Below are positions 8,569 to 28,160 of a stretch of DNA of 64,000 nucleotides, one piece after another. The notes beneath the pieces were generated by a model. The model ran no database searches, was not told the origin of the DNA, and worked only from the letters and a program-made list of their open reading frames with translations. The translations under genes were made by a program, and so were the position numbers. Each line of letters opens with the position of its first letter. The stretch's first letter is position 1. Source of the stretch: Candidatus Eiseniibacteriota bacterium (GTDB taxonomy: Bacteria; Eisenbacteria; RBG-16-71-46; CAIMUX01; VGJL01); assembly GCA_041946735.1 (NCBI GenBank), contig JBHGAY010000009.1, positions 32,001 through 96,000 on the forward strand, in the 5' to 3' direction.

Positions 8569-9438
8569 CTAGCGATCGAGCGAGCGAAGCGCGAGCGATC
8601 CCGCGGCGTCCGGGATTCCGCCCGGCGCGCGCGCGAATGTGCCCTCCCCTCGCCCCATGTCGTGGCATCCGGCGCACAGCTCGTCGCTCGCCGGCTCGAA
8701 GCGAACGAGATTGTCTTCCCCGGCCTCCGTCAGGTCGTGGCAGGTGGCGCACTCGATCCGGCCGTCGAAGAGGCGAATCCGTGGATCGAGCGTGGCGCGG
8801 ATGCGGCTCCCGCCCAGGTCGGAGCCGGGCGTGACCTCGATCCCGAAGGGATGGGTCGCCTCCTCGCGGAATCGCGGAGCGCCGGCGGATAGCGACGCGA
8901 CCACGCTCGCCCCGCCTCGAGTTGCAGCCGCCGAAGCGACGGCGCCCGAAGCTCCGTGGCACGTGAGGCAGAGGTCCGAGGCGCTTCGCGTCGCGAACGC
9001 TTCCCCGTCCGCGTGGTAGAGGCTCGCCGCCTCCCTGTGCCCGCGTGACAAGAGGGAGAGCGGCCGTCCCGGCACGTGACACGCGACGCAGGCCTGGCGC
9101 TCCGACCCTCCGGCATGAAAGCGCGCCTCGCCCGCGAGGATCACGCCGGGATCATGGAAGCGGTGGCAGTCGGAGCAATCGCGCCCCCCGGCGTGGAAAG
9201 CTTGCAGAACGCGGTCCGCGTCGGCAGATTGCATCGCGTGGCATCCCGCGCACGCCGAGGACGGCGGCGCCGAGAACCGGCCCCCATCCGCGTGGCATTC
9301 GGAACACGGAAGCAAGTCGTGCGTACCGCCAGCGGGACAGGAGGAGGACGCGGCGACGCTCGCCGCAACGACAACGCACAACAGGAGCAAGCCGCTTCGC
9401 GCTCGCGCTCTCCGGCGGCACCGATCGAGGCCGTTCAT
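8569..9438 (-). CDS. Exported heptaheme c-type cytochrome
   Basis: 7 CxxCH motifs (CSECH, CAGCH, CSDCH, CVACH, CLTCH, CATCH, CAGCH). A basic then hydrophobic signal peptide follows ATG 9438, with GGGAG upstream. Confidence 0.88.
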   Translation of the reverse strand: MNGLDRCRRRARARSGLLLLCVVVAASVAASSSCPAGGTHDLLPCSECHADGGRFSAPPSSACAGCHAMQSADADRVLQAFHAGGRDCSDCHRFHDPGVILAGEARFHAGGSERQACVACHVPGRPLSLLSRGHREAASLYHADGEAFATRSASDLCLTCHGASGAVASAAATRGGASVVASLSAGAPRFREEATHPFGIEVTPGSDLGGSRIRATLDPRIRLFDGRIECATCHDLTEAGEDNLVRFEPASDELCAGCHDMGRGEGTFARAPGGIPDAAGSLALRSLDR

Positions 9439-9538
9439 ACCCGCTCCCTCTCCGCGGCCACGGGGCGCTGCCCGCTTCCCACCGCCGACCGGCGAGGGGA
9501 AACCGGGGAGCGTACACGCGGACCGGGCGGGATCGGAG

Positions 9539-9555
9539 TGCAACGATCGTACCAG
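9539..9555 (-). promoter_or_regulatory. Putative sigma54 (-24/-12) promoter of the heptaheme cytochrome gene
   Basis: Minus strand reads CTGGTACGATCGTTGCA, i.e. GG-N10-GC close to the TGGCAC-N5-TTGC consensus. It is intergenic, about 100 nt upstream of ATG 9438. Confidence 0.65.
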
Positions 9556-9644: not shown

Positions 9645-10883
9645 TCACCGCTTGTGGCACTGGATGCAGAGGTCTCCGTCCGGATTGCGCGGAAGGTACT
9701 TCTCGAAGCGCGCGCCGTGCATCTGATGGCAGCTCAGGCAGGTCACGGACTCGCCCGACCTGGGATCGATGACCTCGGGACCGACCGGGTGCGAGGCCTT
9801 GTGCGCGCTCTCGTGGCATCGCACGCACAGATCGATTTGGCGGGTGGAGAGAAGGAGAGGATCGTCCGACCCATGCGGCGTGTGGCAGTTCGTGCAGTCC
9901 ATCCCCTGATGCGTCAGGTACTTCTGCTTGTCTCCGCCGCTCTCGTTGAAGTGGCACCGCATGCAGAGATCCTTCTGTTCCCCGGCGAGCAGCTTGGTCG
10001 CGTTCGAGGCATGCGGGTTGTGACAGGCCACGCACGACTCCTCGGTGTCCAGGTTGTGCCGGTGCGCGAGCGCGAGCGACTTCTCGATCGACCGGTGACA
10101 ACCGGTGCAGGTCTTCTGCACGGACGCCTTCATCGCGAAGGCGGACGCTCCGTCGGTCGCGGCGTGGCAGCTTCCGCAGGAGCCTGCGGCGAACGGCGCG
10201 TGCTGGTTCGCCCTCAGGAGCTTCCGTGAGGCGGAGGCGTGCGGATCGTGGCAGGCCGCGCAGTCCGACGCTCCGATCGCGTATCCCTTGTGCGCGGCCT
10301 GGAAAGAGGTGTTCTGCGGATGGCACCGCGAGCAGAGGCCCGCGACGTCCTCCACGAGGAGCTTTCCTGCGCTCGATCCGTGCGGCTCGTGGCAGATCGA
10401 GCAATTCCCCGACTTCAGCGGAGCGTGGACGACCGGCGAGGCGAGCCATTGCGCGACCGGGGCGTGGCAGCTTCCGCAAAGCGACTTGGGCTCGGCGACG
10501 AGCTGGTTCGGAAGGGCGGAGGCGTGAGGGGAGTGGCAACCGTCGCACTCTCCCGCCGCCGCCGGCACGTGCACGCTCGCCTTCTTCGTCTCTTCCGCGA
10601 CGGCCGGATGGCAGGAAAGGCAGAGCGGTCCCGTTTCCTCCTGAAGAAGCGCCGCGTGTCGCGATGCATGCGGATTGTGGCACTGGGAGCACTTGCCGCT
10701 CCGGAACGCGGTGTGCAGGTGCGCGGCCTTCGTCTGCTCCCGCACGTCGGCATGGCACTCGTAGCAGACGGCCGGCTCGTCCACGGGCGGGATCTCGGCC
10801 GACACTCTCGCCGCGCTCCAACCGAGAAGCGCGAAGAGAAGCGTGGCGAGGCCGGTGATTCCGGAAGGGAATCGACTCCTCAC
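9645..10883 (-). CDS. Periplasmic 16-heme c-type cytochrome (repeated H-P..CxxCHxPH..LCxxCH modules)
   Basis: 16 CxxCH motifs counted and a signal peptide. GTG 10883 overlaps the TGA of the upstream gene (GTGA coupling). Confidence 0.93.
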   Translation of the reverse strand: MRSRFPSGITGLATLLFALLGWSAARVSAEIPPVDEPAVCYECHADVREQTKAAHLHTAFRSGKCSQCHNPHASRHAALLQEETGPLCLSCHPAVAEETKKASVHVPAAAGECDGCHSPHASALPNQLVAEPKSLCGSCHAPVAQWLASPVVHAPLKSGNCSICHEPHGSSAGKLLVEDVAGLCSRCHPQNTSFQAAHKGYAIGASDCAACHDPHASASRKLLRANQHAPFAAGSCGSCHAATDGASAFAMKASVQKTCTGCHRSIEKSLALAHRHNLDTEESCVACHNPHASNATKLLAGEQKDLCMRCHFNESGGDKQKYLTHQGMDCTNCHTPHGSDDPLLLSTRQIDLCVRCHESAHKASHPVGPEVIDPRSGESVTCLSCHQMHGARFEKYLPRNPDGDLCIQCHKR

Positions 10884-12880
10884 GGCTTGCCCCCCTCCTT
10901 CCCGGCCGGTTCGCGATGGCAGACTTCGCACGCATTGCTGTCGAACGGCTGATGGCGCAGCTTGGCGATCAATCCTTCCCCATCGGATCCATGCGGGTCA
11001 TGGCACTTCGCGCAGTCCAGATCCGTCCCCGCCTCCCCGAGATGCGCGGCGCGGAACTCGGTCGCCTCCCCGTCGTGGCAGGCGAGACAGGTGGCCGGCA
11101 TGGCGCTCGTGAGAAGCGACGGGTGCTCGCTCTCGTGCGCCTGATGACACGACAAGCACTGTCCTTCCGCGGCCGGCGGGTGCTTTCCCGATTCGGCCAG
11201 CGTCTCCTGCACCTCCTTGTGGCAGTCGAGGCAGAGCGCCCCGGGCTCCTCCGGAAGCAGCTTCGCGATCTTCCCTCCATGGGGAAGATGGCAGCTCGTG
11301 CAGTCCCCTTCGCGGACCGGCTGGTGTCCGGAGGGGGCCGCCGCCGCCTCTCCCCGGACATCGCCGTGGCAGCCGCCGCAAGTCTCTGCGACCGGAGCCG
11401 CCATCAGATGCGCCTGCTCCGACGCGTGAGCAACGTGGCAGGTCTCGCACGCGCGCTCCTCGAACGGAGGATGGTGGACGGTCCGCTCCTGATCCTCGAG
11501 GAGCGACGCATGACAGCCGGTCGAGCAGAGCTCCGCCGGATCCACCTTCAGCAGATGCTCGTTCGCGGAGGCGTGAGCGGCGTGGCAGTCGTTGCAGTCG
11601 CCGGTCTTGACCGGCATGTGGATGCTCGTCTCCGCGCTCCATGCGGCCGTCTGCTCGTGACAGTCGCCGCACAGGTCGGAGCGGTTCTTCGCGGTCAAGG
11701 CAGGATAGTCGGACCCGTGCGGGCGGTGGCAGTCGAGACAGCTGCCTCCTTCGAACGGGGCATGGACGAACGTGGCCTCCGGGCCGCGAAGGTCCGAATG
11801 GCAGCGAAGACAGAGGTCGTTCGCCGGGACGGCGATCAGTCTTGCCTCCGTCCGGCCATGCGCCTGGTGGCAGAGCGTGCAGTCCTTCGAGGCCGGCTCG
11901 TGGCGCGAGGCTTTCGCGATCTCCTGCGCCACCTCTCCGTGGCAGCTGGTGCAGAGCGACGCAGCCGGCTTCACGAGGAGCGCCGGCTGCGTCGAGCCGT
12001 GAGGACGGTGGCAGTCGGTGCACATCCCAGCCGCGACCGGCTGGTGGACTCCCTCGCCCGGCGCCTCGTGGCAGCCGGTGCAGAGTTCGTTCGCGTCGGC
12101 GGCGTTCAAGGCGAACGGCTCCGCGTCGTCGGGCGGATGGTGGCACGCCTCGCACGATCCGTCGGCGACCGGAGCGTGGAAGGATACGGCGAGCAGCTTC
12201 GGACTGGCCGAGGAATGCGGCGCATGGCACTCCCCGCAGTCCTTCGAGGAGAGGTCATAGCCGGCGTGGGCACTGGCGAACTGCGGCTTGCCCGTCTCGT
12301 GGCAGTCGGCGCAGAGCGCGGTCTGCTCCTTCTTCAGTAGATGCTCGGCGTCGGAGCCGTGCATCTCGTGGCAGGCGGCGCAACCGTCCTTGAGGGGTGC
12401 GTGGCGATGCTCTCGTTCGAATCCGGCTCGATCATGGCACGAGAAGCATGCCTCCCCGCCGGCGGCTCGCATCAGGCCCCGGGCGTCGCTCGCATGGGGA
12501 TCGTGGCAGGCGGTGCACTTCCCTTGAGCGGCCGGAGCGTGCGTGTTCGCGCGGTCCAAGCCGAGCGCGGCGCGGTCGTGGCAGGTATAGCAGAGGGCCG
12601 CTCCGTCCTCCTTGAGGCGCAGCGCGCCGACGAGGCCGTGCGGCTTGTGGCAGGAGAGGCATTCCTTCGCCGCGAACGGGGCATGCTGCACTGACCCGGG
12701 AAACTGTGAGACGGGATGGCACTTCAGGCAGGACTCGTCCTTGCCCGAGAAGCGCCGGCCTCGCTTGACCTGGCCGGCAGCGGGATCCGCGGCGACGGCA
12801 GCGAGGCCGAGCGCGAGCAACGCGCAGGCGATTCCTGTCCAGGAAACGGAGCAAGTCATCCGCGCCGGGACTCCCCTCAT
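10880..12880 (-). CDS. Periplasmic 26-heme c-type cytochrome
   Basis: 25 CxxCH plus one CX3CH (CSTGCH), in the same double-heme repeat. Signal peptide after ATG 12880. Confidence 0.93.
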   Translation of the reverse strand: MRGVPARMTCSVSWTGIACALLALGLAAVAADPAAGQVKRGRRFSGKDESCLKCHPVSQFPGSVQHAPFAAKECLSCHKPHGLVGALRLKEDGAALCYTCHDRAALGLDRANTHAPAAQGKCTACHDPHASDARGLMRAAGGEACFSCHDRAGFEREHRHAPLKDGCAACHEMHGSDAEHLLKKEQTALCADCHETGKPQFASAHAGYDLSSKDCGECHAPHSSASPKLLAVSFHAPVADGSCEACHHPPDDAEPFALNAADANELCTGCHEAPGEGVHQPVAAGMCTDCHRPHGSTQPALLVKPAASLCTSCHGEVAQEIAKASRHEPASKDCTLCHQAHGRTEARLIAVPANDLCLRCHSDLRGPEATFVHAPFEGGSCLDCHRPHGSDYPALTAKNRSDLCGDCHEQTAAWSAETSIHMPVKTGDCNDCHAAHASANEHLLKVDPAELCSTGCHASLLEDQERTVHHPPFEERACETCHVAHASEQAHLMAAPVAETCGGCHGDVRGEAAAAPSGHQPVREGDCTSCHLPHGGKIAKLLPEEPGALCLDCHKEVQETLAESGKHPPAAEGQCLSCHQAHESEHPSLLTSAMPATCLACHDGEATEFRAAHLGEAGTDLDCAKCHDPHGSDGEGLIAKLRHQPFDSNACEVCHREPAGKEGGKP

Positions 12881-12938
12881 CCCCCCATCCTCTCCATCGG
12901 CCAACTGCCCCCTTGCCCCCTCGATCCCGTCCCGCGAC

Positions 12939-14636
12939 CTACGAGCCGGAGCCAAAGTACTCGTCGATCGCCTTCTCGTCCCGCACGATCCTCGAAGCCG
13001 CCTTCAACGCTTCGAGCTGCCGGTCCAGGATCTCGTTGAACTTCTGCTGGAACATCACCCGGCGGATTTCGCCGTCGGCCTCCTCGATCGTTCGAAGCGG
13101 CCCGGGTCGGCGATCCTTCATCTTCACGAGAAGCCAGCCCGTCTCGACCGCGAACGGGCCGCCGATGCCGCCGATCGAGATCGTCTTGAGCTGCTCGGCC
13201 ATGGGCGGCGGCAGCGTCCCAAGGCCGATCCATCCCCGGTCTCCGATCGGATCCCCGGCCGCGGCTTCCGCCTTCTGCTTGAGAAACGCGAAGTCCGCGC
13301 CTCTGTTCAGCCGCTCGAGCGTCGCCTCCGCCTCCTCCTGCGTCGGCAGGAGAATGGTGAGAAGTTGGATGTCGTCGGGTCCCCGGAACTCCTCCTGGTG
13401 GCTCTCGTAGTAGTCGCGAAACTCTTCGTGCCGAAACGTGATCTTCGGGACGACCATCTCCTTCAGATAGAGATCGATCAGCACCTCGGCCCGCTTCTGC
13501 TCCACCTTCCTCCGGACCTCCGGATCGTCCAGGAAGCCGCCGTCCCGAGCCGAGCAGTAGAGCACGAGATCCTCGATCTTCGTGTCGATGCCGCGCTGGA
13601 GAAGGGTGTCGAACGGCGCCGTCGCCTCGGTCATCGCGCCGTGGGAGACGGCCCGGCGAAGCGCCCCCTCCGTCACCGTGTCGCAGCCGGCCACCGTCAG
13701 CGCCGCCCGCGTCGATTCGCGAAGGAACGTCCCGGTGAGAACGGCGTCCGAGTCCGCCTCGAGAGCCGCGATCGCCTCGGGATCGATCTGCACCGGGATC
13801 GCCTGCTTCCGCGCGCCGACGAAATCCCGCCAGGCCTTCTCCTTCGCCGCGCTCTGGAGGAAGCCGATCACCTTCGCGCGAACCTTTCGGTAGTCGCTCG
13901 TGTCCGGCTCGTCCCGTGACTCCATCCGGACGAGGCTGAAGAGGCTGCCATACGCGAACGGCCGGGAGATCTCCCCCGCCTTCAGGTCGATCGCCGCCGC
14001 ACGGACGGGGATCTCGACGTCGATCCAGGGTCCGAGGTGATGGAGGCCACCCCTCGCGGACCAGGAGTCGCGGGAGCGCTGGCGCGCGAGGCTGTCCATC
14101 GAGGCGCCGGCGCGAATCGCGGACAGCACCTCCTCCGCCTCCTCCATCGATGCGACGGAGATCTGGCGTATCTGCAGCTTCCAGTAGTACTCCCGGAAGT
14201 GGGCCAGCGCCTGCTCCTCGGCAACGGGGGGAGGCGGGACATACGCCGAAGCGACGTACCGCCGGATCGCCTGTTGTCGCCGCTCCTCCGCGATCGCCGC
14301 CTGCGCTTCGGGCTCCTCGTCCAGACCGATCGATTCGGCTTCACGGACGAGCAGCCGGTCGTGGATCAGCTTCGTGAGCAGCTTGCGGTAGTCGAACGAT
14401 TCCTTGCGATCGCGACTCATCGTCTGATGAGTCCGGATCAGAAGCTCGTCGAGGTCGCACGCCCGGATCGTGTCTTCGTCGACGATCGCGAGAACGGTCG
14501 CCTCCGCGGCTCCCTTCGGTCCGGAAGATCGAGCCGGCGGGGCGACCGCGATCATAGCCGCCAGGCCGATGCCCGCGAGGAGGACGAGAGGGGGCACGAG
14601 CGCGCGCGCGCCGCTCGGTTCATCGCCTCGACGCAT
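12939..14636 (-). CDS. SurA/PrsA-like foldase with two parvulin (PpiC) domains
   Basis: Signal peptide. First domain: IRQISV..EEAEEVL..GASMDSLARQRSRD..GG..GEISRPF. Second domain: LLTILL..EEAEATLERLNRGADFAFL..GDRGWI..GPFAVETGWLLVK. Confidence 0.85.
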   Translation of the reverse strand: MRRGDEPSGARALVPPLVLLAGIGLAAMIAVAPPARSSGPKGAAEATVLAIVDEDTIRACDLDELLIRTHQTMSRDRKESFDYRKLLTKLIHDRLLVREAESIGLDEEPEAQAAIAEERRQQAIRRYVASAYVPPPPVAEEQALAHFREYYWKLQIRQISVASMEEAEEVLSAIRAGASMDSLARQRSRDSWSARGGLHHLGPWIDVEIPVRAAAIDLKAGEISRPFAYGSLFSLVRMESRDEPDTSDYRKVRAKVIGFLQSAAKEKAWRDFVGARKQAIPVQIDPEAIAALEADSDAVLTGTFLRESTRAALTVAGCDTVTEGALRRAVSHGAMTEATAPFDTLLQRGIDTKIEDLVLYCSARDGGFLDDPEVRRKVEQKRAEVLIDLYLKEMVVPKITFRHEEFRDYYESHQEEFRGPDDIQLLTILLPTQEEAEATLERLNRGADFAFLKQKAEAAAGDPIGDRGWIGLGTLPPPMAEQLKTISIGGIGGPFAVETGWLLVKMKDRRPGPLRTIEEADGEIRRVMFQQKFNEILDRQLEALKAASRIVRDEKAIDEYFGSGS

Positions 14637-15681
14637 GATCCTCCCGCGGCTGTTCTTCGATCTTCGCAACGAGGCGATCGAGGGACTCCTCGACAAGGCG
14701 CCCGAGGCTCGTGGTCCAGCCGAGCGGAAGAAGGCCGGCCCGTCGTTCTCCTCCAGTTTGTTCCTCGATCGCCTGGAACAGATGGCCCGTGCGGGCGTCG
14801 ACCAGGCGAACGCCATAGGCGAGCCGCGGCATCGCCATCTGGGCGTCCCCTTGCGACTCGACGGCCTCGTCGACCTCTCCGGTGATCGCGAGATCGATGG
14901 CCAGATCCTCGCGTAGAGCGCGGAGCGTCTCGAGATCGATCCCTCCGCGCGGCGCGACATGCAGGCGCTCGAAGAGCCGCCGGAGCAAGCCCGGCTCGAC
15001 GATGTCATAGCCATGGGCGAACAGCACGGGGAGCAGAAGATCCGAGACGAGGGGGCCGTCCTGGGGATCCTGCGGGCTTCCATCGAACGGGACGATCGCG
15101 ATCCGTCCCTGCGTGGGCCCCGTTCTCTTGCCGTCCAGGCAGGCGGCGAGACGCGCGATCGCCTCGCGCACGACGTCCCTCGCGAGGAGATCCGGATCGC
15201 GGACCCTCCCGATCTCGAACAGCGAAGCGTGGTCGAGCCCTGAGGAGGCGGCCGAAGCGGCGGCGATCACGCGGAGATCGGACGGCGCGAGCAACCGGAG
15301 GGCGACGGCAATCTCGGGGTTCTCCCCCTCCTGGTAGAGAATCACCGAACCGAGCAGGAGCGCCTCGGCGCCTGTCGCCTCCGCAATCCGCGCGCCGTCC
15401 TCTTGATCGAGCGAGGCCAGCGAGCGGATCCGGTGCTCGCGCAGGACTCCGCGAACCTGCTCGTCGTCGAGGAGCCGCCACCGCTTCGCCGCCTCCTCCC
15501 GCACGATCGGCAACACCTTCTCGGCGCCCGAGCCGTCCGCCGTGCCATCGGCAAGGCCGAGGACAGCGACGGCGAGAACGCCTTCGGGCGCCGTCTCGGG
15601 CATGGCCGTCTGCGCGAAAGCCGCGGTGGAAACCGCGGAGATGGAGGCGACGAGAAGGATGCCGAGCAGGGCCGCACGCAT
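14620..15681 (-). CDS. Exported protein with two tandem CsgG/PelC/GNA1162-like alpha-beta domains
   Basis: Signal peptide (..STAAFA). Two repeats of the AV/IVPF..G...A.GAEALLLGSV...RLVDARTG pattern, which also resembles the neighbouring lipoprotein. Confidence 0.7.
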   Translation of the reverse strand: MRAALLGILLVASISAVSTAAFAQTAMPETAPEGVLAVAVLGLADGTADGSGAEKVLPIVREEAAKRWRLLDDEQVRGVLREHRIRSLASLDQEDGARIAEATGAEALLLGSVILYQEGENPEIAVALRLLAPSDLRVIAAASAASSGLDHASLFEIGRVRDPDLLARDVVREAIARLAACLDGKRTGPTQGRIAIVPFDGSPQDPQDGPLVSDLLLPVLFAHGYDIVEPGLLRRLFERLHVAPRGGIDLETLRALREDLAIDLAITGEVDEAVESQGDAQMAMPRLAYGVRLVDARTGHLFQAIEEQTGGERRAGLLPLGWTTSLGRLVEESLDRLVAKIEEQPREDHASRR

Positions 15682-15683
15682 CG

Positions 15684-16280
15684 TCAATGCACCAGGGTGC
15701 GGATCGTCCGGTCGACGCACCGTCGTGTCACTTCGCTCGCCGAGGCATCGTCCGATCCGAGGAGCGAGCCCCAGAAGCTGCGTCCATCCTCCGTGTGCGT
15801 GGCGGACCAGACCGTCGATCCCCTTTCGACCTCCACGAGCCTGGCCGTCAGAGTGATGACCGGCGTGCTGGAGGCGCCGCTGCGAGCCGTACCCGACTCT
15901 CCCACGCTTCCGAGGAACAGCGCTTGCGTACTGAGCTCTTTCCCTATGTCGACGATCTGCTGCTCGGTAAGCTCCGCCGTCCGCGTCAGCCCGTACTTCT
16001 CGAGGACGCGCGTCACCTCCCCCGGCTCGACCACTTCAAACGCCCCGGTCGCGAGAAGCTCCGAGACGAAATACCGGGTCGTGCGGAACGCGGCTCCCTG
16101 GTCCTGGCTCAGGTTCTCGAACGGAATGACCGCGACCTTCTCGACGTAGTTGAAATCGTAGTCGGGATGGAGAAACACAGTCGGCCTGCTTCCGGCGCAT
16201 CCCGAGCCGATCACGGCGGCCAACAGCGGCAGCAGGACTCCGATCCCGGGGAACGAGCGGACTGGTTTCACGGTTCTCAT
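15684..16280 (-). CDS. Lipoprotein, PelC/GNA1162(DUF799)/CsgG-like
   Basis: Lipobox-like IGSG-C, then KVAVIPFENLS, FEVVEPGEV, ALFLGSV and ARLVEVERGSTVWS. Confidence 0.8.
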   Translation of the reverse strand: MRTVKPVRSFPGIGVLLPLLAAVIGSGCAGSRPTVFLHPDYDFNYVEKVAVIPFENLSQDQGAAFRTTRYFVSELLATGAFEVVEPGEVTRVLEKYGLTRTAELTEQQIVDIGKELSTQALFLGSVGESGTARSGASSTPVITLTARLVEVERGSTVWSATHTEDGRSFWGSLLGSDDASASEVTRRCVDRTIRTLVH

Positions 16281-16287
16281 CCTGTCG

Positions 16288-18423
16288 CTAGAAGGTGGTC
16301 CGGATCCCCTGCTGGAGAGACGTCGTGCTGCTCCCTCCCGCCTCTCGAAAGTCCGAACGGGATCCGGTCAGGTAGAGGCTCGTACGGGAGTTGAGGTCGT
16401 ACTCCAGCGTGGCTCCGTACCTCTCGGTCGCGGTTCCACCCGCGTAGCTGTCCAGCTCCGCCTGGGCGCTCAGGCGCACCTTGCCCGTCAGAAGCCATCC
16501 GAGCGCGTATTCCTGCGTCACCGTGCTGCCATGGTCGTCGCTCACGCTCGCCGCGGCGCGAAGGTCGATCTTTCTCGTGGCGTTCCAGTCGAGATCGAGG
16601 CGTCCCTGCGTCCGCACACGCACCGTCTCGGTCGGGATCGTCCGGGTATCCTGATGCTGCAACGACGCGCTCATATTGAGCGCAGGATGGAGCGAACCGC
16701 CGAGTGTCGCGCCATAGCTCCAGGTGTCGTGTCGAAGGCGGCCGAGGTAGTCATTGTCCCGAATCTTGCCGCCTTCGAGCCCCAGCCGGAGCTCCGGGAG
16801 CGGAGTCCCCTGAAAGCGGACCAGGACCGAGTTGTTCTCCAGGCTCCGACGCTCGTCCAGGAAGCTCAGGCGCGTTTGCGCGGTCAGATCGAGCTGGATC
16901 GTCGACAGAGGATCGAACTGCAGTGTGTAGGAGCCGAGCCTCTCCGTCACGTCCCCGATCCCCTCCCGCGACTCCTCCAGCCCCTGTTGCCAGCGCGCTG
17001 AATGCTGGAACAGGCGCGACTGGCGTAAGCGGCCGGCGAGCCGATAGTACGCGCTCGTCCGGCTTCCAACAACCGCCTCCCCCGTCTTGTGGCGGTAGCC
17101 GAGGTTGATGGAGGCGTCCGCCGCCTCGGAGAACTTCATCTGTCCGCCGACGTCGGCGATATGGGCCAGCTCCTCCCGCCGGTCCTCGTCCTCGCCGGGG
17201 ATCCCCTGCAGCACCTCGATCTCGGTGACGAGGACGTCCACGATCTCATTCAGGCCTTGCTTGACGACCTTGACATATCGCGTCTCCACCGGGACGAGCA
17301 GTATCTCGTAGCGGTTGAGCCCCGGATTGAAGAGTGGCGCTCGATCCTGAGGGACCAACCGCCAGGTCAGATTGTCGTCCGAGACGTAGGCCGCCCAGCC
17401 CGGCTGCGATCCGGAGGACCGGTCCGTGTAGAGGTACAGCGCGCGAATCTCGCGAGAGAATCCTAGATCCGCACCGGCGTTGGTTCCCTCGACCGCTCCT
17501 CCGATCCGGACCGGCGGCTGGGTCGCCCCTTGCCGGTCCCCGTCTCCGAGACCCGGGAGCGGGTCGAGCGAGCCGAACTCCGGCGTCAGATCTTCGGCGA
17601 AGAGAGGAGTGAAGTCGGGAATGGGATCCAGGATCTCCTCGCCAACGGTCCGCCGATCACGCTGGAAGCGGTCGGAGAACGTGTACGCGGCGTTCACGCG
17701 GAGATGATTGGAGAAGCCCCGAGTGGACGTGTCAAGACGAGCGCGGTGCCCCGTGAGGTCGCTCTGCACGCCGTGGATCACGTTCTCGGTCCTACGCCTG
17801 TCGAACTGATAGGTGACCGACTGCCCTTTCCAGGTATGCCGGATCGAGGCCTGCCCTTCCTTGTCGCGGATGTCCTGGGAGAGGTCGGCGCCACGATCGA
17901 AGATGTGATCCGCATCGAAGCGGAAGGTCAGCCTCGGATACCGGACCGCTCGGGTGGACCCATGGATCGTGAAGTTGTCCGAGATCACGTCGCCGGCCAG
18001 GCTGGACGCATGGGCCGTGCGGCGACGGATGCCCGCGCCGAGCGTCAACGCGCGGCCGCCATAGAGGATCTCGGCGGACGGCTGCACTTCGCGGTTCCAG
18101 AGGTCGGTCGCCTCGGCCTGCCGCTGGTCGGCCTTGGTGTAGAGGATGCCGGCGCGTAGATTCAGGTGCTTCACGAACGTCTTCGACCAGTTGAGCGTGT
18201 AGTGCTGCCGGACATTCCCTTGATCGTCCCCGTCGATCTCCGACTGCACCGCGCTGACGTCGATGGAGCCGCTGAACGCCTGCGGAAGGATCGCTGCGCG
18301 AGCGGAGGGAAACGAGAGGAGAAGCAGACTCAGGGCCGCACCCGTCCACCGCCCCGCACTCCCGATTCCGAGCACTCGAGTCACTCCGATCGTTCTCCCC
18401 CTCGGCCGCGAGGACGCCCGCAC
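16288..18423 (-). CDS. Large outer-membrane beta-barrel protein with an inserted soluble domain
   Basis: Signal peptide, many alternating amphipathic beta-strands, and C-terminal Phe (QQGIRTTF). The start could instead be GTG 18384. Confidence 0.8.
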   Translation of the reverse strand: MRASSRPRGRTIGVTRVLGIGSAGRWTGAALSLLLLSFPSARAAILPQAFSGSIDVSAVQSEIDGDDQGNVRQHYTLNWSKTFVKHLNLRAGILYTKADQRQAEATDLWNREVQPSAEILYGGRALTLGAGIRRRTAHASSLAGDVISDNFTIHGSTRAVRYPRLTFRFDADHIFDRGADLSQDIRDKEGQASIRHTWKGQSVTYQFDRRRTENVIHGVQSDLTGHRARLDTSTRGFSNHLRVNAAYTFSDRFQRDRRTVGEEILDPIPDFTPLFAEDLTPEFGSLDPLPGLGDGDRQGATQPPVRIGGAVEGTNAGADLGFSREIRALYLYTDRSSGSQPGWAAYVSDDNLTWRLVPQDRAPLFNPGLNRYEILLVPVETRYVKVVKQGLNEIVDVLVTEIEVLQGIPGEDEDRREELAHIADVGGQMKFSEAADASINLGYRHKTGEAVVGSRTSAYYRLAGRLRQSRLFQHSARWQQGLEESREGIGDVTERLGSYTLQFDPLSTIQLDLTAQTRLSFLDERRSLENNSVLVRFQGTPLPELRLGLEGGKIRDNDYLGRLRHDTWSYGATLGGSLHPALNMSASLQHQDTRTIPTETVRVRTQGRLDLDWNATRKIDLRAAASVSDDHGSTVTQEYALGWLLTGKVRLSAQAELDSYAGGTATERYGATLEYDLNSRTSLYLTGSRSDFREAGGSSTTSLQQGIRTTF

Positions 18424-18506
18424 CCTGCGGCGCGGGCGTCCCCTTCTCGTGCTTCTCTTCTACTGCTTCTCTTCCGGCCGGTAGATGTCCCGGCCGCGCG
18501 GCTCAC

Positions 18507-19562
18507 TTACGGATTCGAGCCCTCGTCGTCCGCGTCCTTGACGTGGCACTTGTTGCAGAGCGAGCGCTGATGCTCGTCGTAGGGGTTCGGGATCGCGTAG
18601 CTACCCGACTCGACGCCGTCTTCGGCCAAGAGCGTGAGATTGAAGTCCCAGCGGCCGGCGTTCGGCGCGGAGGTCGCGTGCGCGCGGTGGCAGCTGATGC
18701 AGGAGACCTGGCTGCCGGCGCTGGGACCCATCGTCGACTCGATCGTCATCGACGCGTCCTCGAAGGGAACCGCGGCCAGGTACGCCGTCGCCTGCGTTCC
18801 GCCCTCGTAGTCGCTCGTCCCGTTGTACATGTTGTAGTTGTCGGCGATGCTCCCGCCGACCGTCTCGCCCGACGGGTGGATGAGCGCGGTGCCGTTGTTG
18901 TGGTAGTCGCCGTGGCAGTTTGCGCACCAGGCGCTCATTCCGCCCTGATAGGCGGTGTGGTAGTTGTTCGCCTCGGGGGCGCTGTCGCTGAAGTTGATTC
19001 CCTCGGCGGTCGGCGCCGCGTTCTCGAAGAGGAAGTAGCCGTCGTTCACCATCCGGCCCGCGCCGTACAGCAGCCGGAACGCCTGGGTCCCGTGCGGGTC
19101 ATGGCAGCTCGAACACGCGAGATGATCCGACCGGAACGAACCTCCGGGAGCGGTGACGAGGACCGGGTCGGCGACCGAGCCGTACGAGGGGGCGATGATG
19201 TTGTGTCCCGCCTTGTGCCCCGGAATCGGGTTCTGGCCACCGTTGTGACCGTCGTTGATGTTGTCCTCGAGCAGGTAGGTGAAGTTGCCGGCGCCCTTCT
19301 CGGGCGGCGGATTCAGCGGGTCGTTCCAGAACACCTTGCCACGGCTCGTCGCGTGGCACGAGAGGCACATCTCGCTCGGGTTGGCCTCTTTCAGGAGCCA
19401 GGCGTTTCCGTTCGGATGGTCCGGGTCGATCGGAACCCCATCCTCGCTGTTGTGCATCGTGTGGCACCCTCTGCAGGCCGCCACTCCGCCGTCATGGAAT
19501 GCGAAGCTGGGGGTCGCGAGGACGAAGCAGATTCCCAGCCCGATGATGATCATCCTGTGCAT
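18507..19562 (-). CDS. omcS: OmcS-family hexaheme c-type cytochrome (candidate nanowire subunit)
   Basis: GGGAGGA RBS and a 21-aa signal peptide, then FHDGGVAACRGCHTMHNS, GHNIIA, TAPGG..LACSSCHDPHG, GMSAWCANCH, AYLAAVPFE, VSCISCHRAHA and QRSLCNKCHVKD. These are collinear with G. sulfurreducens OmcS motifs as I recall them. Six CxxCH motifs. Confidence 0.92.
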   Translation of the reverse strand: MHRMIIIGLGICFVLATPSFAFHDGGVAACRGCHTMHNSEDGVPIDPDHPNGNAWLLKEANPSEMCLSCHATSRGKVFWNDPLNPPPEKGAGNFTYLLEDNINDGHNGGQNPIPGHKAGHNIIAPSYGSVADPVLVTAPGGSFRSDHLACSSCHDPHGTQAFRLLYGAGRMVNDGYFLFENAAPTAEGINFSDSAPEANNYHTAYQGGMSAWCANCHGDYHNNGTALIHPSGETVGGSIADNYNMYNGTSDYEGGTQATAYLAAVPFEDASMTIESTMGPSAGSQVSCISCHRAHATSAPNAGRWDFNLTLLAEDGVESGSYAIPNPYDEHQRSLCNKCHVKDADDEGSNP

Positions 19563-19693
19563 GGACTCGTTCCTCCCAAGTTTGGAAGCGAATGGAATGG
19601 ATGTCGTGTGCGACCACTTCGAACTGTTCTCCGCAGTGCTTCCCCTCGCGCTCGTTCCTCCTTCCCGGTCTGTCAGCCCCGATTCCGAAATCT

Positions 19694-20806
19694 CTATCGA
19701 CGAACGGCGTATCCACTGTCCGGATCGATCCCGACGGCTTGCGCATTCGCTTCTCGAATGAAGCGCGGCACACGGCACATCTGGACCTTCCCCTCGAACC
19801 ACTGCCCGACGTACACGATCTCCTTGCCGTCCGTGGCGAGCAGAGTCGGGTGGTAGAACCATCCCGGGCTGGATCCCAGCCCGCCGAATTCACCGAGGAA
19901 GGTTCCTTCCCGATCGAAGCAGAGGACCGCATAGCGGTGCTTGTCGAGAACCAGAAGAAGTCCCTCGTCGGTTCCTGCGACGGCCACGGGAAAGTTCAGC
20001 TCCCCGATGTTGTTGCCCCCGTAACCAACCGTGCGCAGGAACTTCCCCGCCAGCGAAAAGACCTCGACGGTCGCGGCCGGCGTGATCGGAACGTAGAGAC
20101 AGTCTCCGATTCGTTCGATCGAGCCGTATCCGACTTCGCTGGGCCGCGGCTCCCGCTCCACCCCGACAGGGAAGGAGCGAACGCGGCGGCCGCCCGCATC
20201 GAGGACGACGACGACGCCCTCATCGGGATCGAGCAGGTAGATCGAGCCTTCGTCATCGACCGCGAAGCTGCTCGCGTGGGCCGGGAGATCTTCCGGCTGT
20301 CCCACGGTTGCGAGAAAAAGCCCGTCGAAGTCGAAGAGGAAGAGTCGGGATCCCTCAGGCGTAGAGCCGAGGACGAGGATCCGGCCGAGTGGATCGATCG
20401 CTACATCGAGGGGTGCCCCGAAGCGAGAGCCACCGCGGAACTCGAAGCGGTAGGTTCCTTCCGCATCGAAGACGAGTATCCGGTTGTGTCCCGCTTCCGC
20501 CAGCACGAGCTCCTTCGCCGCCGGATCGAAGGCGACCGCTTGAGGTCGGAGCAGTTCGTCGGTCTCCCCGGGGAGGTTCACCATCCGGACGAAGTCCGAA
20601 GGAACCGCCCGAGACGGGGGCGCTTCCGCGCGAGGCGGGGGCGCTTCCGATGCTGCAGACTGTGCAATCGACATCGAAAGAAGGCCTGAGGCGAGCGAAA
20701 GGAGAACCGCATGCAGCGCGGCTCTTGCCTGGTGCGGAAAGAAGGCGGGGGCCCGGGTTTGGCGATCCGGCCGGCTCGCCGTTAGCATTACTTTCTGTGA
20801 ATCCAT
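19694..20806 (-). CDS. NHL-repeat six-bladed beta-propeller protein, exported
   Basis: Repeats LLRPQAVAFD, FGAPLDVAIDPLGRI, GELNFPVAVA and PGWFYHPTLLATD, with a hydrophobic N-terminal segment. Start uncertain (20806 or 20788). Confidence 0.85.
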   Translation of the reverse strand: MDSQKVMLTASRPDRQTRAPAFFPHQARAALHAVLLSLASGLLSMSIAQSAASEAPPPRAEAPPSRAVPSDFVRMVNLPGETDELLRPQAVAFDPAAKELVLAEAGHNRILVFDAEGTYRFEFRGGSRFGAPLDVAIDPLGRILVLGSTPEGSRLFLFDFDGLFLATVGQPEDLPAHASSFAVDDEGSIYLLDPDEGVVVVLDAGGRRVRSFPVGVEREPRPSEVGYGSIERIGDCLYVPITPAATVEVFSLAGKFLRTVGYGGNNIGELNFPVAVAGTDEGLLLVLDKHRYAVLCFDREGTFLGEFGGLGSSPGWFYHPTLLATDGKEIVYVGQWFEGKVQMCRVPRFIREANAQAVGIDPDSGYAVRR

Positions 20807-21178: not shown

Positions 21179-21733
21179 TCAATCCCCGTGGGCTTTTGCT
21201 GCCGCGGCCGCGGCATCGAGCCGGCGGCGGCAGTCCTCACAGAAGTCGTCCCCTTTGAGGTCGACCTCCTCCACTCCGGAGGAGAAGTGCATGGCGCAGT
21301 CGAACGAAGCGCAGTGGACGAGGCCGAAGGCGTGCCCCAGCTCGTGGAGCGCCTCCTTCTCGGCCCGGTGGTAGAAAAGCTCCGAGTCCTCCGGCAGCCC
21401 ATAGAAAGTCGGACGGAGCCGGGTGAGCGAGAAGGTGGCGGCGGGCCCGCCGAGATGGGCTTCACCGAACACGAACGTCAGGATCGGGATGTGGAGGTCC
21501 GCGTCGATCACGCCGAGGATCTTCTGCCCGCTCTCTTCCCTTCCTCGGGCCAGGGCATCGAGGATCTTCGTCGAGTGGTGCTGTCGCCGGACCGGGTCAT
21601 AGGCGAAATCGGCCAACAACGGCTCGGGCGCGACACTCACCTCCGCTTCGAGTCTCTCCGCGAGAAAGAGAGAGAGATAGGAGGTGAGAGCCTCGTCGAC
21701 GACCCCCACCGGAACGATGAGGATGCGGCGCAC
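21179..21733 (-). CDS. Archaemetzincin-family (M54) Zn metalloprotease
   Basis: KEALHELGHAFGLVHC...CAMHFS..EEVDLK...FCEDC, and LTFVFGEA. Confidence 0.9.
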   Translation of the reverse strand: MRRILIVPVGVVDEALTSYLSLFLAERLEAEVSVAPEPLLADFAYDPVRRQHHSTKILDALARGREESGQKILGVIDADLHIPILTFVFGEAHLGGPAATFSLTRLRPTFYGLPEDSELFYHRAEKEALHELGHAFGLVHCASFDCAMHFSSGVEEVDLKGDDFCEDCRRRLDAAAAAAKAHGD

Positions 21734-21736
21734 CTC

Positions 21737-23085
<1,349 letters not shown>

Positions 23086-23089
<4 letters not shown>

Positions 23090-24723
23090 TTCGCCACCTC
23101 CGGTTGCCCTTCCCGGTTTTCCGGGGGCTGGGGAGGAAGATGGAAGCGGAAGCTCGTTCCTTCCCCAGGAACGGATTCCACGTCCACCTTGCCTCCGTGC
23201 CCCTCCAGGATCCCATACACAACGGCCAGGCCGAGCCCGGCGCCGCCTTCCTTCGTCGTGTAGAACGGCTCGAAGAGATGGCGCCGCGTCTCCTCGTCCA
23301 TCCCCACTCCCGTGTCCCGGATCTGCACGCAGATCCCGCGTCCCTCCGAATCGCGCCGGGTCGTCACCGACAGCACTCCGGAGCCCGACTCGCCCTGCAT
23401 CGCTTCGCACGCGTTGATCAGGACGGCGACGAACGCCTGCCGGATCTGCTGCGGATCGCAAACGATCGAGGGCAGATCGGCGGCCAGGTCGAGCTCGCAG
23501 CGCAGCCCCTGCAGGTCGATCTGGTGCTGGACGAGGCGGACGGTTCCCCGGACGAGTTCGTTGATGTCGCACGGCTCCGCCTTCGGCCTCGACGGGCGCG
23601 AAAACTGAAGGAGATTCTTCACGATCTCGCCGCAGCGGGTCGCCTCGCTTTCGATCTGCGCGAGGATCTCCTGGGTTTCCGACGAAGCGGAGTCCGGACC
23701 GTTCTCTGCCGCGCGCCTACTCGCGCGCTTGCCGAGCAGCTTGGCGTAGGTGCGGATACCGGCCAGGGGATTGTTGATCTCGTGAGCGACGATCGCGGCG
23801 AGCTTCCCCATCGACGCCATCTTCTGCGTCTGCAGCATCTCCTCCTGCGCCCTCTCCAGCGCCCGCGACTTCTCCTCCACCCGCGATTCCAGCGTGCGAG
23901 CCCAGGCCGCCTCCTTCTCGCGCGCCAGCGCCAGCTCCGCGGTCATCCGGTTGAACGAGACGGCCAACCGTCCCAGCTCGTCGTCCGACGCGATCGGGAT
24001 GCGCCCGGTGAGGTCGCCCCCGCCGATCCGCTGAGTCTCCTTCATGAGGCGCTTCACCGGAACGTGCACCATCCGGTACAGCAGCCAGGAGCACAGGGCG
24101 ATCAGCGCCAGCAGGACGAGCGAGATCGAGACGATCAGCTGCCGCGAGACGCGAGCCAGCTCGCGATCCACGTTCTCGAGGGTCATCTGCACGTCGAGCA
24201 CTCCCAGCACCCTCTTGTCCGCTGGGTGGGCATGGCACGAGGCATTCGCGCAGCTCGGCTCGTTCTGGATCGGGGCGATCATGCCGAGAGTCCGGTGGCC
24301 GTCCGGGTTGCGGAAGATGCGGAAGCGCTCCGACTGCGGGATCTCCGGGACCGGCTCCTGGCCCCGATGGCAGTTCACGCACGCCTCGGCGCGCGGATCG
24401 ACCATCTGCCCCACTTCCTCGGAGTGAGTCGAGTAGCGGATCCGTCCCCCCTCGTCGTAGATCCGGATCCGGTCGAACTCGGGCTGCTCGCCGGTCGCCT
24501 GGATGATCTCGAAGATTTCTTGCCGTTCGTTGCGGAACATGAAGGACCGGGTGCTGCGACGGATCAGATCGCAGACCCGGTCGGTGTCCCGTACGACCGT
24601 CTTCTCCATCTGCCTTCGGCTCTCGCCCACCACCCAGAAGCCGAGCAGCCCCAGGAACAGGGCCACTCCACCGGCGAGAAGCAGCGAGAGCCGAAACGCG
24701 AGTGCCCTCGGTCCGAACCTCAT
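23086..24723 (-). CDS. Sensor histidine kinase with HAMP domain and a periplasmic c-type heme-binding sensor domain
   Basis: Two TM segments flank CVNCH and CANASCH motifs. H-box AHEINNPL, N-box NACEA, and G boxes DTGVG and GAGLGL. Confidence 0.92.
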
Positions 24724-25883
24724 CGATTCCCCGCGCGGTCCTCCCTCCCGGCCGCCCCCACGTAGGCAGGCTGCGCGTGCGTGCCGTGCCCGAAGAGGGG
24801 AAGATGGCGCGCGGCGAGCCCGAAGACGGCGAACCCGATCGCGACGATCATGACCGTGATCGAGACCTCCGTCCAGGCGGGGAAGTAGTCCGCCCGAATC
24901 GACGCCTCCATTCCGGTGATGCTGACGTTCAGCCGGTGCATCACGAACCCGAGGATCGCGAGCAGCGAGATCGCGAACTGGCCGCGCGGATGCTGCCGCA
25001 CCTTTCCGACGAGCAGCAGCGCGATCGGCGCGAGCAGCCCGAGGAACACCTCGATCCAGAAGAGGCCCGCCTCGGGCGTGGCCTGGACCGCGTAGCGGAT
25101 CGCCCCGCGCTGGACGACGTCCAGGATCCGCAGCAGGGCGTACGGAACGAGCAGGACCAGCGCCATCCGGCAGAGATCATGACGGACGTCGGGAGCGAGC
25201 GCGTGCCCGAACGCGCGCTGGCTCAGGAACGACTCCATCAGGACCATGCAGCAGCCGACCGCCAGCGCCGAGAGGAAGAACAGCACCGGCAGCCATGACG
25301 AGTACCAGAGCGGATGCAGCTTGTTCGGAACGATCAGGTAGAGCGAACCGAGCGACGACTGGTGCAGCGTCGAGAGGAGCACGCCGGCGATGATGAAGAA
25401 CGGCAGCGCCGATCGAACCAGCGAAAGGGCCCGCTTCCAGCGCAGCCGCTCCAGCACGGCGGGGCTGAACTCGACGGCGAGCACGGTCGTGTAGAGCATG
25501 ACGCACCAGGCGACCTCGAACATCACCGAGCGCGGGTTCCACATGACGATCGGATGCCAGATCATCCACGGCCTGCCGAGATCGATCAGCAAGGCGAAGA
25601 TGACGAGGAGGTAGCCGAGAAACGCGGTGAGGATTGCAGGCCGGATCACCGGCTCGAACCTCTTCACGTTGAAGATGTGGACGGTCGCGGCCATCGCGAA
25701 ACCGCCCGCGGCGAGCCCGACGCCGCAGAGCAGATCGAAGCCGATCCAGAGCCCCCAGGGGAATCGGTCGCTCAGATGGGTGGCCGAACCCAGGCCCTGC
25801 GTGAAACGCAGAACGGTGCTGTAGAGACCGAGACCGAGGATCACCGCGAAGACGACACGCCAGAAGCCGAGGCGCACCTTCAT
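24720..25883 (-). CDS. NrfD/PsrC-family integral membrane subunit (HybB-like)
   Basis: PWGLWIGFD..GVGLAAGGF, DLGRPW, SVMFEVAWCV, LSTLHQSSLGSL and KLHPLW; about 10 TM helices. Confidence 0.9.
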   Translation of the reverse strand: MKVRLGFWRVVFAVILGLGLYSTVLRFTQGLGSATHLSDRFPWGLWIGFDLLCGVGLAAGGFAMAATVHIFNVKRFEPVIRPAILTAFLGYLLVIFALLIDLGRPWMIWHPIVMWNPRSVMFEVAWCVMLYTTVLAVEFSPAVLERLRWKRALSLVRSALPFFIIAGVLLSTLHQSSLGSLYLIVPNKLHPLWYSSWLPVLFFLSALAVGCCMVLMESFLSQRAFGHALAPDVRHDLCRMALVLLVPYALLRILDVVQRGAIRYAVQATPEAGLFWIEVFLGLLAPIALLLVGKVRQHPRGQFAISLLAILGFVMHRLNVSITGMEASIRADYFPAWTEVSITVMIVAIGFAVFGLAARHLPLFGHGTHAQPAYVGAAGREDRAGNR

Positions 25884-26656
25884 CACTCCACCCCCATCCC
25901 TTCCGCCCGCTCGCGCGCCGCCATGCGCTCGCGAGCCAGAACCATGCGCCGGTTGATGATCCAGTAGAGGCCCGACAGGAGGCTCCCGCCCACCAGGACG
26001 ACGTTCGGCAGCTTCGAGAGAACCGCCTCGGTGTACTCCTCCATCGGATGGCCGGGCAGGTTCACCGGGAGTCCCAGCTCCGCGAAGGAAACGTCCGAGA
26101 GGATCAGGACCGAGGTCCCGCCTCCCTCCTCCTCGCCATAGACCTGCTGGACGTAGACGTCCGGCTGCTGCGCGATCCTCTCGTGCGCGATCTTCAGCAG
26201 CTCCTCGCGATCCCCGAAGAGGGTCGCTCCGGTCGGGCAGGCCTCGGCGCAGGCGGTGGGAAGTCCCTGTGCGAGTCGCGGCGCGCAAAGGATGCACTTG
26301 CGGACGGCCGGGTTCGTCGAGGACCACTCGTAGCGCGGCACCCCGTACGGGCAGGCCATCATGCAGTAGCGGCAGCCGATGCACCGAGACTCGTCGTAGA
26401 GCACCGGCCCCTCGGGGGTCTTGTGGAACGCGCCGACGGGACAGACGGACGCGCAGGTCGGGTGGAGGCAGTGCATGCACATCCGCCGGATGTTGCGCGA
26501 ACCGTCCGCTACCTGCCTCTCCTGCACGACCGTGTAGGACTTGTCGGAGAGCTCGTTGCCTTCCGTCTCGGGAAGGTGGTTCGCCTCACGGCAGGCCTCG
26601 CGGCACGCACCGCATCCCACGCACTGGGTGACATCGAACAGGATCCCCTTACCCAT
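25883..26656 (-). CDS. 4Fe-4S dicluster protein (HybA/NrfC-like) with C-terminal TM anchor
   Basis: CVGCGACREAC, CMHCLHPTCASVCP, CIGCRYCMMACP and KCILC..ACAEACP, followed by a C-terminal hydrophobic helix. Confidence 0.92.
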   Translation of the reverse strand: MGKGILFDVTQCVGCGACREACREANHLPETEGNELSDKSYTVVQERQVADGSRNIRRMCMHCLHPTCASVCPVGAFHKTPEGPVLYDESRCIGCRYCMMACPYGVPRYEWSSTNPAVRKCILCAPRLAQGLPTACAEACPTGATLFGDREELLKIAHERIAQQPDVYVQQVYGEEEGGGTSVLILSDVSFAELGLPVNLPGHPMEEYTEAVLSKLPNVVLVGGSLLSGLYWIINRRMVLARERMAARERAEGMGVE

Positions 26657-26717
26657 GACCTCCCTCCGTCGTGAGCGTGCTGCAGCGCGCGCTCGCCGTA
26701 TCGATCCCCTCTTGAGA

Positions 26718-27371: not shown

Positions 27372-27383
27372 GACGTACCTCCT

Positions 27384-28121: not shown

Positions 28122-28160
28122 GACCTCTCTCCTCGCCATTCCGCGACCACATTCTTGTGA

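Follow-up and report, generated by a model that had tools for sequence, protein, structure and literature searches.

A compact OmcS-family hexahaem cytochrome and its putative osc-type gene block in a Candidatus Eiseniibacteriota bacterium

Can a cytochrome of about 330 residues be a subunit of the kind of filament that is formed by OmcS of Geobacter sulfurreducens, whose mature chain has 407? This question is raised by a gene at 18507..19562, on the minus strand, of a 64,000-nucleotide stretch from a Candidatus Eiseniibacteriota bacterium (GenBank assembly GCA_041946735.1, contig JBHGAY010000009.1, positions 32,001 to 96,000 of the forward strand), the whole of which is called the window below. 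The original prediction, made from the letters of this window, was that of a loop-trimmed, acidic and minimal OmcS homologue, able to polymerise and keeping the inter-subunit ligand His16 in exact register. Our results show that the gene is a true member of the OmcS family. We lean, with modest confidence, towards the reading that its product is a subunit of an OmcS-type extracellular filament, encoded together with genes for its biogenesis and for feeding it electrons.

The cytochrome gene and its kinship to OmcS

18507..19562, minus strand: OmcS-family hexahaem c-type cytochrome gene (P0001), an open reading frame (ORF) of 351 codons plus the stop codon at 18507-18509
19500..19562, minus strand: predicted Sec signal peptide of 21 aa (...TPSFA/F), read from the sequence, after which F1 aligns to OmcS residue 1
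19452..19454, minus strand: codon (CAC) of mature His16, candidate inter-subunit haem ligand, aligned to OmcS H16

The start of the cytochrome was placed at 19562 because a GGAGG Shine-Dalgarno sequence lies 9 nt upstream of this ATG, because the G+C content at third codon positions (GC3) is 0.90 within 18507-19562 and only 0.53 in the in-frame extension upstream of it (19563-19862), and because those of the listed homologues that are not N-terminally extended open with a signal peptide of similar length. A longer ORF of 451 aa, starting at 19862, was ruled out by GC3 and by the position of the Shine-Dalgarno sequence. The signal peptide, MHRMIIIGLGICFVLATPSFA, has S at -3 and A at -1 and would be cleaved at PSFA/F, so that the mature protein begins with FHDGGVAACRGCHTMH (F1-H2 ... 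C9-x-x-C12-H13-T-M-H16), mature H16 being H37 of the precursor. The mature length, first estimated at about 330 aa, is exactly 330. The chain has 19 His and 12 Cys, the latter in six CXXCH motifs (Cys pairs 9/12, 45/48, 129/132, 192/195, 267/270 and 315/318), and it is acidic as predicted, with a pI of 4.93 and 38 D+E against 14 K+R.

When the protein was compared by phmmer with all PDB chains, OmcS (6ef8/6nef, 407 residues) was the sole match (E 2.7e-42). Query residue 22 falls on OmcS residue 1 and the alignment is gap-free up to OmcS residue 29, so F1, H2, C9, C12, H13 and H16 stand in exact OmcS register; the predicted junction, the F1-H2...H16 start and the position of H16 are all in agreement with this alignment. 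It continues in three stretches, OmcS 1-150, 183-356 and 391-407, and each of the six CXXCH motifs pairs with an OmcS motif in conserved order. Searches of the cytochrome against Pfam and NCBIfam gave generic multihaem motifs and nothing beyond. The AlphaFold2 model, obtained with an 80-row alignment, reached a mean pLDDT of 90.1 and a pTM of 0.87; in Foldseek its one match below E 1e-3 was 6ef8_A (E 2.9e-21, TMq 0.79), and VIA-align superposed 311 of the 330 residues on 6ef8 at 2.2 Å (Z 31.0), spanning OmcS 1-407. Homology to OmcS, as proposed, was thus recovered by all three methods, and these results also indicate, as far as the model goes, that the compact cytochrome keeps the whole OmcS core, both ends included.

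Compared with OmcS itself (G. sulfurreducens GSU2504; PDB 6EF8/6NEF), the window protein therefore shares the six CXXCH in the same order, the N-terminal F1-H2...C9xxC12-H13-x-x-H16, all 12 histidines conserved in the family (see below), the C-terminal haem-6 segment QRxLCNKCHxKD and a fold otherwise unique in the PDB. It differs in sequence (identity 31% by Foldseek and 40% by the structural alignment of VIA-align), in its length and in H181, which is Arg in OmcS; it also belongs to a separate deep clade, whereas filament formation is established for OmcS only.

Axial histidines and differences in length

Ligands were counted in a family alignment of 76 OmcS-like ORFs, taken unfiltered from the window and 72 genome loci. 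Exactly 12 of the 19 histidines of the cytochrome are conserved, each in 72-76 of the 76 rows: H13, H49, H99, H196, H208, H271, H274 and H319 are His in every row, H2, H133 and H136 in 75 and H16 in 72. The other seven are conserved in 3-45 rows. The 12 comprise the six CXXCH histidines together with H2, H16, H99 (GHN), H136 (DPH), H208 (IHP) and H274 (RAH), the last four being the further candidate ligands pointed out at first, and none of them has been removed by the differences in size. Their number agrees with that of the axial ligands of OmcS, which are all His, 11 from the same subunit and one, at haem 505, from the neighbour (Filman 2019, PMC6584659); the inter-subunit His is restated in the OmcZ paper, together with an interface of about 1900 Å2 (PMC9473688). 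The six haems of the window protein likewise appear to be bis-His ligated, and the pairing of each distal His with a given haem is suggested by this count rather than by coordinates. The partner histidine is also present, as H271, which aligns to OmcS H332. The inter-subunit pair of OmcS is reportedly H16 and H332 (Wang et al. 2019).

These histidines bear on the idea that the protein is a soluble periplasmic hexahaem carrier or redox enzyme with no part in extracellular electron transfer. By itself, a Sec signal peptide takes a protein no further than the periplasm, and the generic motifs seen by Pfam would suit such a protein. With 12 conserved His and six haems that appear bis-His, however, there would be no open catalytic site; the fold is specific to OmcS, with no other PDB fold clearly matched, and the gene is tightly linked to those for an outer-membrane barrel, a lipoprotein and a chaperone (see below). 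We regard a periplasmic role of this kind as very improbable.

The conservation of H16 needs to be read with some care. A second alignment, A2, omitted 6 of 73 plus-strand rows (four without in-register H16, one partial, and L046) and two minus-strand rows. The invariance of H16 in A2 is therefore by construction, because rows lacking it were left out, and the 76-row alignment gives the unbiased count. Setting aside L023, which is N-terminally cut, and L031, which has five CXXCH only and lacks the haem-3 His133 and His136, H16 is the only one of the 12 ligands to be lost by some paralogues. The four rows that lose it (L068, L060, L077 and L047_m18121) all retain the haem-5 motif, as expected for a ligand that is dispensable to the monomer fold. 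In a fifth, L040_p9970, H16 is displaced by one residue.

These five paralogues without in-register H16 (L068:10058-11209, L060:1008-2261, L077:10004-11146, L047_m18121 on the minus strand and L040:10067-11161) come from Geobacterales and Desulfuromonadales loci, and all retain six CXXCH, L047_m18121 having a seventh. Such paralogues might end a chain or fail to polymerise. Two further histidines, H181 and H200, are also conserved beyond the 12 ligands. H181 (H202 of the precursor) is invariant across the 36 close homologues of alignment A1 and is His in 38 of the 76 family rows, OmcS and 27 rows having Arg instead; at H200, 45 of the 76 rows have His.

The difference in length is spread over a few positions. 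In the phmmer alignment OmcS 151-182 is absent from the cytochrome, OmcS 357-390 is matched by 12 residues (about 22 fewer), and gaps of 7 residues at OmcS 64-70 and 305-311 are accompanied by several of 2 residues, while the cytochrome has 8 extra acidic residues at its C-terminus. Long forms, represented by the 21 A2 rows of at least 400 aa, carry a median of 38 additional residues after mature 138, just past the haem-3 motif, then 18 after 305, 8 after 309 and 11 after 251, with small inserts after 54, 62, 152 and 202. Conservation over 12 residues is highest in the N-terminal arm (0.74) and in the haem-3, -4, -5 and -6 motifs (0.70-0.77), against a protein mean of 0.47; among the segments that rank highest are the N-terminal 18 residues (0.74), the haem-5 motif (0.76) and the haem-6 motif (0.70). 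Conservation thus extends to the two ends that come together head-to-tail in OmcS.

Lengths across the family form a continuum, from 326-353 aa in the compact clade through 344-375 in its sister group to 352-441 in the Desulfobacterota/Nitrospirota clade. The long forms may equally carry insertions, and a midpoint root does not tell whether the short form is reduced or ancestral. The description of the protein as loop-trimmed therefore stands in one respect, as the size gap does sit in a few loop positions between haem motifs; deletion as the direction of change was an assumption, which the midpoint-rooted tree leaves unsupported.

Family, tree and taxonomic spread

The homologue search gave 4534 proteins at E <=1e-3. 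The best 120 of these, with precursors of 341-398 aa and 61-69% identity, have mature chains of 322-345 aa (median 330) and a pI of 4.31-5.88 (median 4.76); every one opens with [FYLV]H-x6-CxxCH-xx-H, and six CXXCH are found in 119. The window cytochrome is a median-sized, ordinary member of a large known clade. Its portrayal as a singular minimal variant had to be abandoned, since all 120 share the register and the size.

In a quick IQ-TREE tree of the 76 rows, rooted at the midpoint, the compact clade comprises 23 rows, with a support of 100 in the Shimodaira-Hasegawa-like approximate likelihood ratio test (SH-aLRT). Adding 8 intermediate rows gives a clade of 31 (SH-aLRT 99), which is separate from a 45-row clade holding the OmcS-like rows and the syntenic rows that resemble GSU2501 of G. 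sulfurreducens. The source names of the best homologues include Candidatus Eisenbacteria, Zixibacteria and Acidobacteriota, and Krumholzibacteriota, Fibrobacteria, Ignavibacteriales, Gemmatimonadota and others are represented in addition among the related genome loci.

Within its own phylum the protein is patchily distributed, with a match at E 1e-10 in 10 of 206 genomes (its own genome counted), 6 of 121 high-quality genomes and 9 of 83 genera. The best identity within the phylum (67%) is not above the best across phyla (67-69%). This patchiness, with a within-phylum identity no higher than the cross-phylum one, suggests a horizontal spread of the whole gene block described below. The window genome has one OmcS-like copy.

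Such genes have already been called 'OmcS' in surveys based on FeGenie, in Krumholzibacteria (PMC7914226) and in subsurface communities, where Zixibacteria have both iron-oxidation and iron-reduction genes (PMC8478452). We found no structural or ligand-level account of the compact clade in the open-access papers and preprints that were searched. One of these surveys bears on the possibility that the same filament runs inward, taking up electrons from Fe(II), from mineral oxidation or from a syntrophic partner: the genes for OmcS and Cyc2 occur together in a Krumholzibacteria metagenome-assembled genome (MAG) from a bioreactor metagenome, and the authors do not decide between reduction and oxidation (PMC7914226). 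Sequence does not reveal the direction of electron flow, which leaves room for such a role, and we hold it to be improbable for the window protein.

The gene block and how the locus may be read

The cytochrome belongs to a block that lies entirely on the minus strand and reads, in the order of transcription, regulator/kinase, M54 peptidase, NHL, cytochrome, barrel, LpoB-like, 366-aa protein, peptidyl-prolyl isomerase (PPIase) and the 26-, 16- and 7-haem cytochromes. The features around the cytochrome are as follows.

23086-24723, minus strand: HAMP histidine kinase (Pfam); start uncertain, ORF overlapping that of the regulator
21737-23572, minus strand: sigma-54-dependent response regulator (Pfam); start uncertain
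21179-21733, minus strand: peptidase of family M54 (archaemetzincin-like), between the two-component system and the NHL gene
19694..20806, minus strand: NHL-repeat beta-propeller, 370-aa ORF without CXXCH, OscD-like by position (Pfam NHL and a 6-bladed propeller)
18424..18506, minus strand: intergenic region with two G+C-rich hairpins, the 3' one extending into the barrel ORF and overlapping its annotated GTG start
16288..18423, minus strand: putative large outer-membrane beta-barrel, 711-aa ORF (AlphaFold2 pLDDT 88.4)
15684..16280, minus strand: LpoB/GNA1162-like lipoprotein, 198 aa (Pfam PF13036, PF05643)
14620..15720, minus strand: putatively secreted 366-aa protein of unknown family, with a signal-peptide-like N-terminus
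12939..15083, minus strand: putative periplasmic chaperone, OscH-like, with two PPIC-type prolyl isomerase domains (Pfam Rotamase_2 and Rotamase; NCBIfam PPIase models)
10880..12955, minus strand: giant multihaem cytochrome with 25 CXXCH and 1 CX3-4CH by motif count, in which 13 paired-CXXCH stretches were found
9645..10931, minus strand: 16-haem cytochrome, 428 aa, with 16 CXXCH (GC3 0.84)
8569..9543, minus strand: 7-haem cytochrome, 324 aa, with 7 CXXCH

The conservation of this arrangement was examined by tblastn of the block proteins of the window against the 72 loci. The order NHL, cytochrome, barrel, LpoB-like, 366-aa protein, PPIase and multihaem cytochrome recurs in compact-clade loci (L010-L020, L025 and L031), and the same order is found in Geomonas, Nitrospirota and Desulfobacterota loci (L042, L052, L064, L066 and L073, where L066 is Geomonas edaphica and L052 is from Nitrospirota). 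The same set of genes is present in Geobacter sp. H2geo (L072), apart from the barrel, which has no match there at 1e-5, and the NHL gene of this locus lies downstream of the cytochrome. The regulator and kinase have homologues near the OmcS-like gene in many related loci, and the NHL gene adjoins the OmcS-like gene in many of them. The 711-aa barrel is syntenic in 25 loci, LpoB-like copies stand at the same position with 30-65% identity, and the position of the 366-aa protein, which has no Pfam match, is conserved as well. Syntenic homologues show 21-36% identity for the PPIase, 33-49% for the 26-haem cytochrome and, downstream in compact-clade loci, 46-51% for the 16-haem cytochrome. The 7-haem cytochrome is more weakly conserved and lies elsewhere in some loci, and the gene for the M54 peptidase was found by tblastn in none of the 72.

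OmcS-like genes of the GSU2501 type are described as always preceding a block of eight genes, GSU2500-2493, which is linked to the maturation and secretion of nanowires, and H2geo is named among the genomes with only this arrangement (PMC12977616). The proposal of Shen et al. 2025, as summarised in PMC13194489, gives OscH a role in folding, OscE, OscF and OscG a role in secretion and OscD one in morphology, with oscC being GSU2501, oscI GSU2495 and oscJ GSU2494. From its synteny with the Geomonas, H2geo and Nitrospirota loci, read with the description in PMC12977616, the window block is by gene order an osc-type cluster; a letter-by-letter assignment of OscD to OscK would likewise follow gene order. 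It resembles the osc cluster (GSU2500-GSU2493; PMC13194489, PMC12977616) in combining a beta-propeller protein and a PPIase chaperone with periplasmic multihaem cytochromes and with candidate channel-like components of the outer membrane, the barrel, LpoB-like lipoprotein and 366-aa protein being likened to OscEFG by their position and conserved order. It differs in that its NHL protein has no CXXCH and its barrel carries an inserted beta-sandwich. Shen et al. 2025 (Cell Chem Biol) reportedly call the osc machinery widespread in their title. The supplements of that paper may already list the compact clade.

The hexahaems of the GSU2501 (OscC) type, whose genes immediately precede the osc block in Geobacter, Geomonas and relatives, offer a further close comparison. 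Like those of 'clade 3A' (PMC12977616), the window cytochrome is the sole OmcS-like gene of its genome and stands next to the block, and it shares the N-terminus [FY]HDGGVA.C.GCHTMHNS with the syntenic L066, L070 and L072. These three, however, have mature chains of 424-441 aa and fall inside the Desulfobacterota/Nitrospirota clade, and in H2geo the NHL gene comes after the cytochrome instead of before it.

Some observations concern individual parts of the block. The adjacent sigma-54 regulator is a candidate for driving the cytochrome gene. A scan for the sigma-54 promoter consensus gave 10 matches against 10.9 expected, none of them next to the cluster. A sigma-70-like promoter at 20845-20816 (TTGTCA, 18 nt spacer, TATTAT, with TG; 10/12) ends 10 nt before the NHL ATG; either the NHL mRNA is nearly leaderless or the true NHL start lies further downstream. 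The RNA of 18410-18520, which spans the hairpins behind the cytochrome, folds at -54.4 kcal/mol (z -4.21, with 0 of 200 shuffles as stable) and has no U-tract. The hairpins may be a transcript-stabilising or attenuating element that would keep the subunit in excess over its machinery. The PPIase ORF shares 464 nt with the 366-aa ORF upstream of it, GC3 being high in both frames, and because of this overlap the true PPIase start is probably downstream of 15083. The ORF 9625-10935 was rejected as a gene, being in the wrong frame, without CXXCH and with a GC3 of 0.54. The region 24720-28343 encodes a quinone-linked module, made up of an NrfD-like membrane protein and a 4Fe-4S ferredoxin subunit, and then two proteins with glycine-cleavage-H-like domains; the module may be an inner-membrane entry point for electrons, although the other loci do not conserve it together with the cluster.

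The barrel raises the main rival to the filament reading. The 711-aa protein has no Pfam or NCBIfam match, and its model shows about 29 long beta strands interrupted by a beta-sandwich of about 145 aa (residues ~264-408), which also contains the most conserved motifs of the barrel family (e.g. NRYEI and VTE in the A3 consensus). Its first Foldseek match is MtrB (6r2q_B, E 1.2e-10, TMq 0.39), followed in the list mostly by TonB-dependent receptors and a few pilus ushers; large barrels of the outer membrane make up nearly all of the PDB matches listed. The cytochrome might accordingly be a non-filamentous outer-surface protein, i.e. the extracellular terminal reductase of a porin-cytochrome conduit whose other parts are the 711-aa barrel and, in the periplasm, the 26- and 16-haem cytochromes. 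It would act on the cell surface as a monomer or in short oligomers, and H16 would ligate a partner's haem or close a dimer without building a long polymer. As in MtrCAB/Pcc conduits, a large barrel with MtrB, of the Mtr porin-cytochrome complex, as best PDB match is encoded with multihaem cytochromes, the giant ones directly downstream, and the block possibly had a role in secretion before OmcS wires arose (PMC12977616). The partner cytochrome, however, has the OmcS fold and not that of MtrC, and there is no MtrC-type partner; no match to the MtrB, MtrA or MtrC sequence families was seen above curated cut-offs, while the DmsE/MtrA-type model TIGR03508 scored 305.9 bits on the 26-haem protein through its repeated motifs. 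The TM-score to MtrB is low, and 22-strand TonB-dependent receptors score nearly as well. Moreover, only three residues separate H16 from the haem-1 ligand H13, and with the haems stacked in the order of the sequence (PMC6584659) it is far from haem 5 of its own chain; to fill haem 5, some head-to-tail contact would therefore still be needed. The block also has homologues of genes proposed for the folding and secretion of OmcS nanowires (PMC13194489). A conduit without a filament thus seems to us rather unlikely, if still worth serious attention.

Several points weigh against the filament reading, which otherwise builds on the family membership, fold, ligand conservation and synteny described above. 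Retention of H16 does not in itself prove that filaments form, since 72 of the 76 rows keep it, including L066, L070 and L072, which are syntenic with the Geobacter-type block, and OmcS itself is the only known wire, no function being known for OmcT, OmcJ or GSU2501 (PMC12977616). Lovley and Walker argued from phenotype that the OmcS homologue of G. uraniireducens is not in long conductive filaments (PMC6771412), a view that also favours the conduit. By the midpoint-rooted tree, the compact clade branches outside the OmcS-like/GSU2501-like clade and is not orthologous to OmcS, so function is not transferred by orthology. About 77 OmcS residues are missing, some of which may contribute to the OmcS interface of about 1900 Å2 (PMC9473688). 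The similarity of the barrel to MtrB would also fit a porin-cytochrome conduit without a filament. A two-copy prediction of self-association with mature chains and four haems, made with A2, scored 0.00 against a mark of 0.42 and counts neither way. Near-identical DNA was seen in soil and waste habitats, and the sequencing runs listed included none of RNA.

Under the filament reading, export, polymerisation and the direction of electron flow are proposed as follows. The cytochrome would be exported by Sec, with F1 as the first residue after cleavage of the signal peptide, and H2, H99, H136, H208 and H274 would serve as distal ligands within the subunit. The conserved N-terminal arm would bring H16 to the open face of haem 5 (proximal ligand H271) of the next subunit, and this link would stack haem 1 on haem 6' and create a continuous chain of haems. 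With roles as proposed for the Geobacter osc cluster, the PPIase chaperone would fold the subunit, the barrel, lipoprotein and 366-aa protein would export it, the NHL propeller would modulate it, and the 26-, 16- and 7-haem cytochromes would supply electrons from the periplasm.

A broader possibility, which we put forward tentatively and with some doubt, is that the compact clade of about 330 aa is a second, structurally minimal type of OmcS nanowire, which would have passed horizontally, along with a biogenesis block of its own, among uncultured lineages of soils and sediments; the MAGs in question are labelled Eisenbacteria, Zixibacteria, Krumholzibacteria, Fibrobacteria, Ignavibacteriales, Gemmatimonadota and Acidobacteriota. 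In that case electron transfer through cytochrome wires would be common well outside Desulfobacterota, the roughly 77 additional residues of Geobacter OmcS would be dispensable decoration, and the rare paralogues that lack H16 alone could be non-extending, capping subunits.

At present, the locus is a well-annotated example of a gene already called 'OmcS' by the marker-gene surveys of such lineages (PMC7914226, PMC8478452). If the compact form polymerises, it would define a minimal protein scaffold for an OmcS-type haem wire, which would be useful for structural work and for the engineering of conductive protein materials. It would also place nanowire electron transfer in abundant uncultured phyla of soils and sediments, with a bearing on models of iron and carbon cycling.

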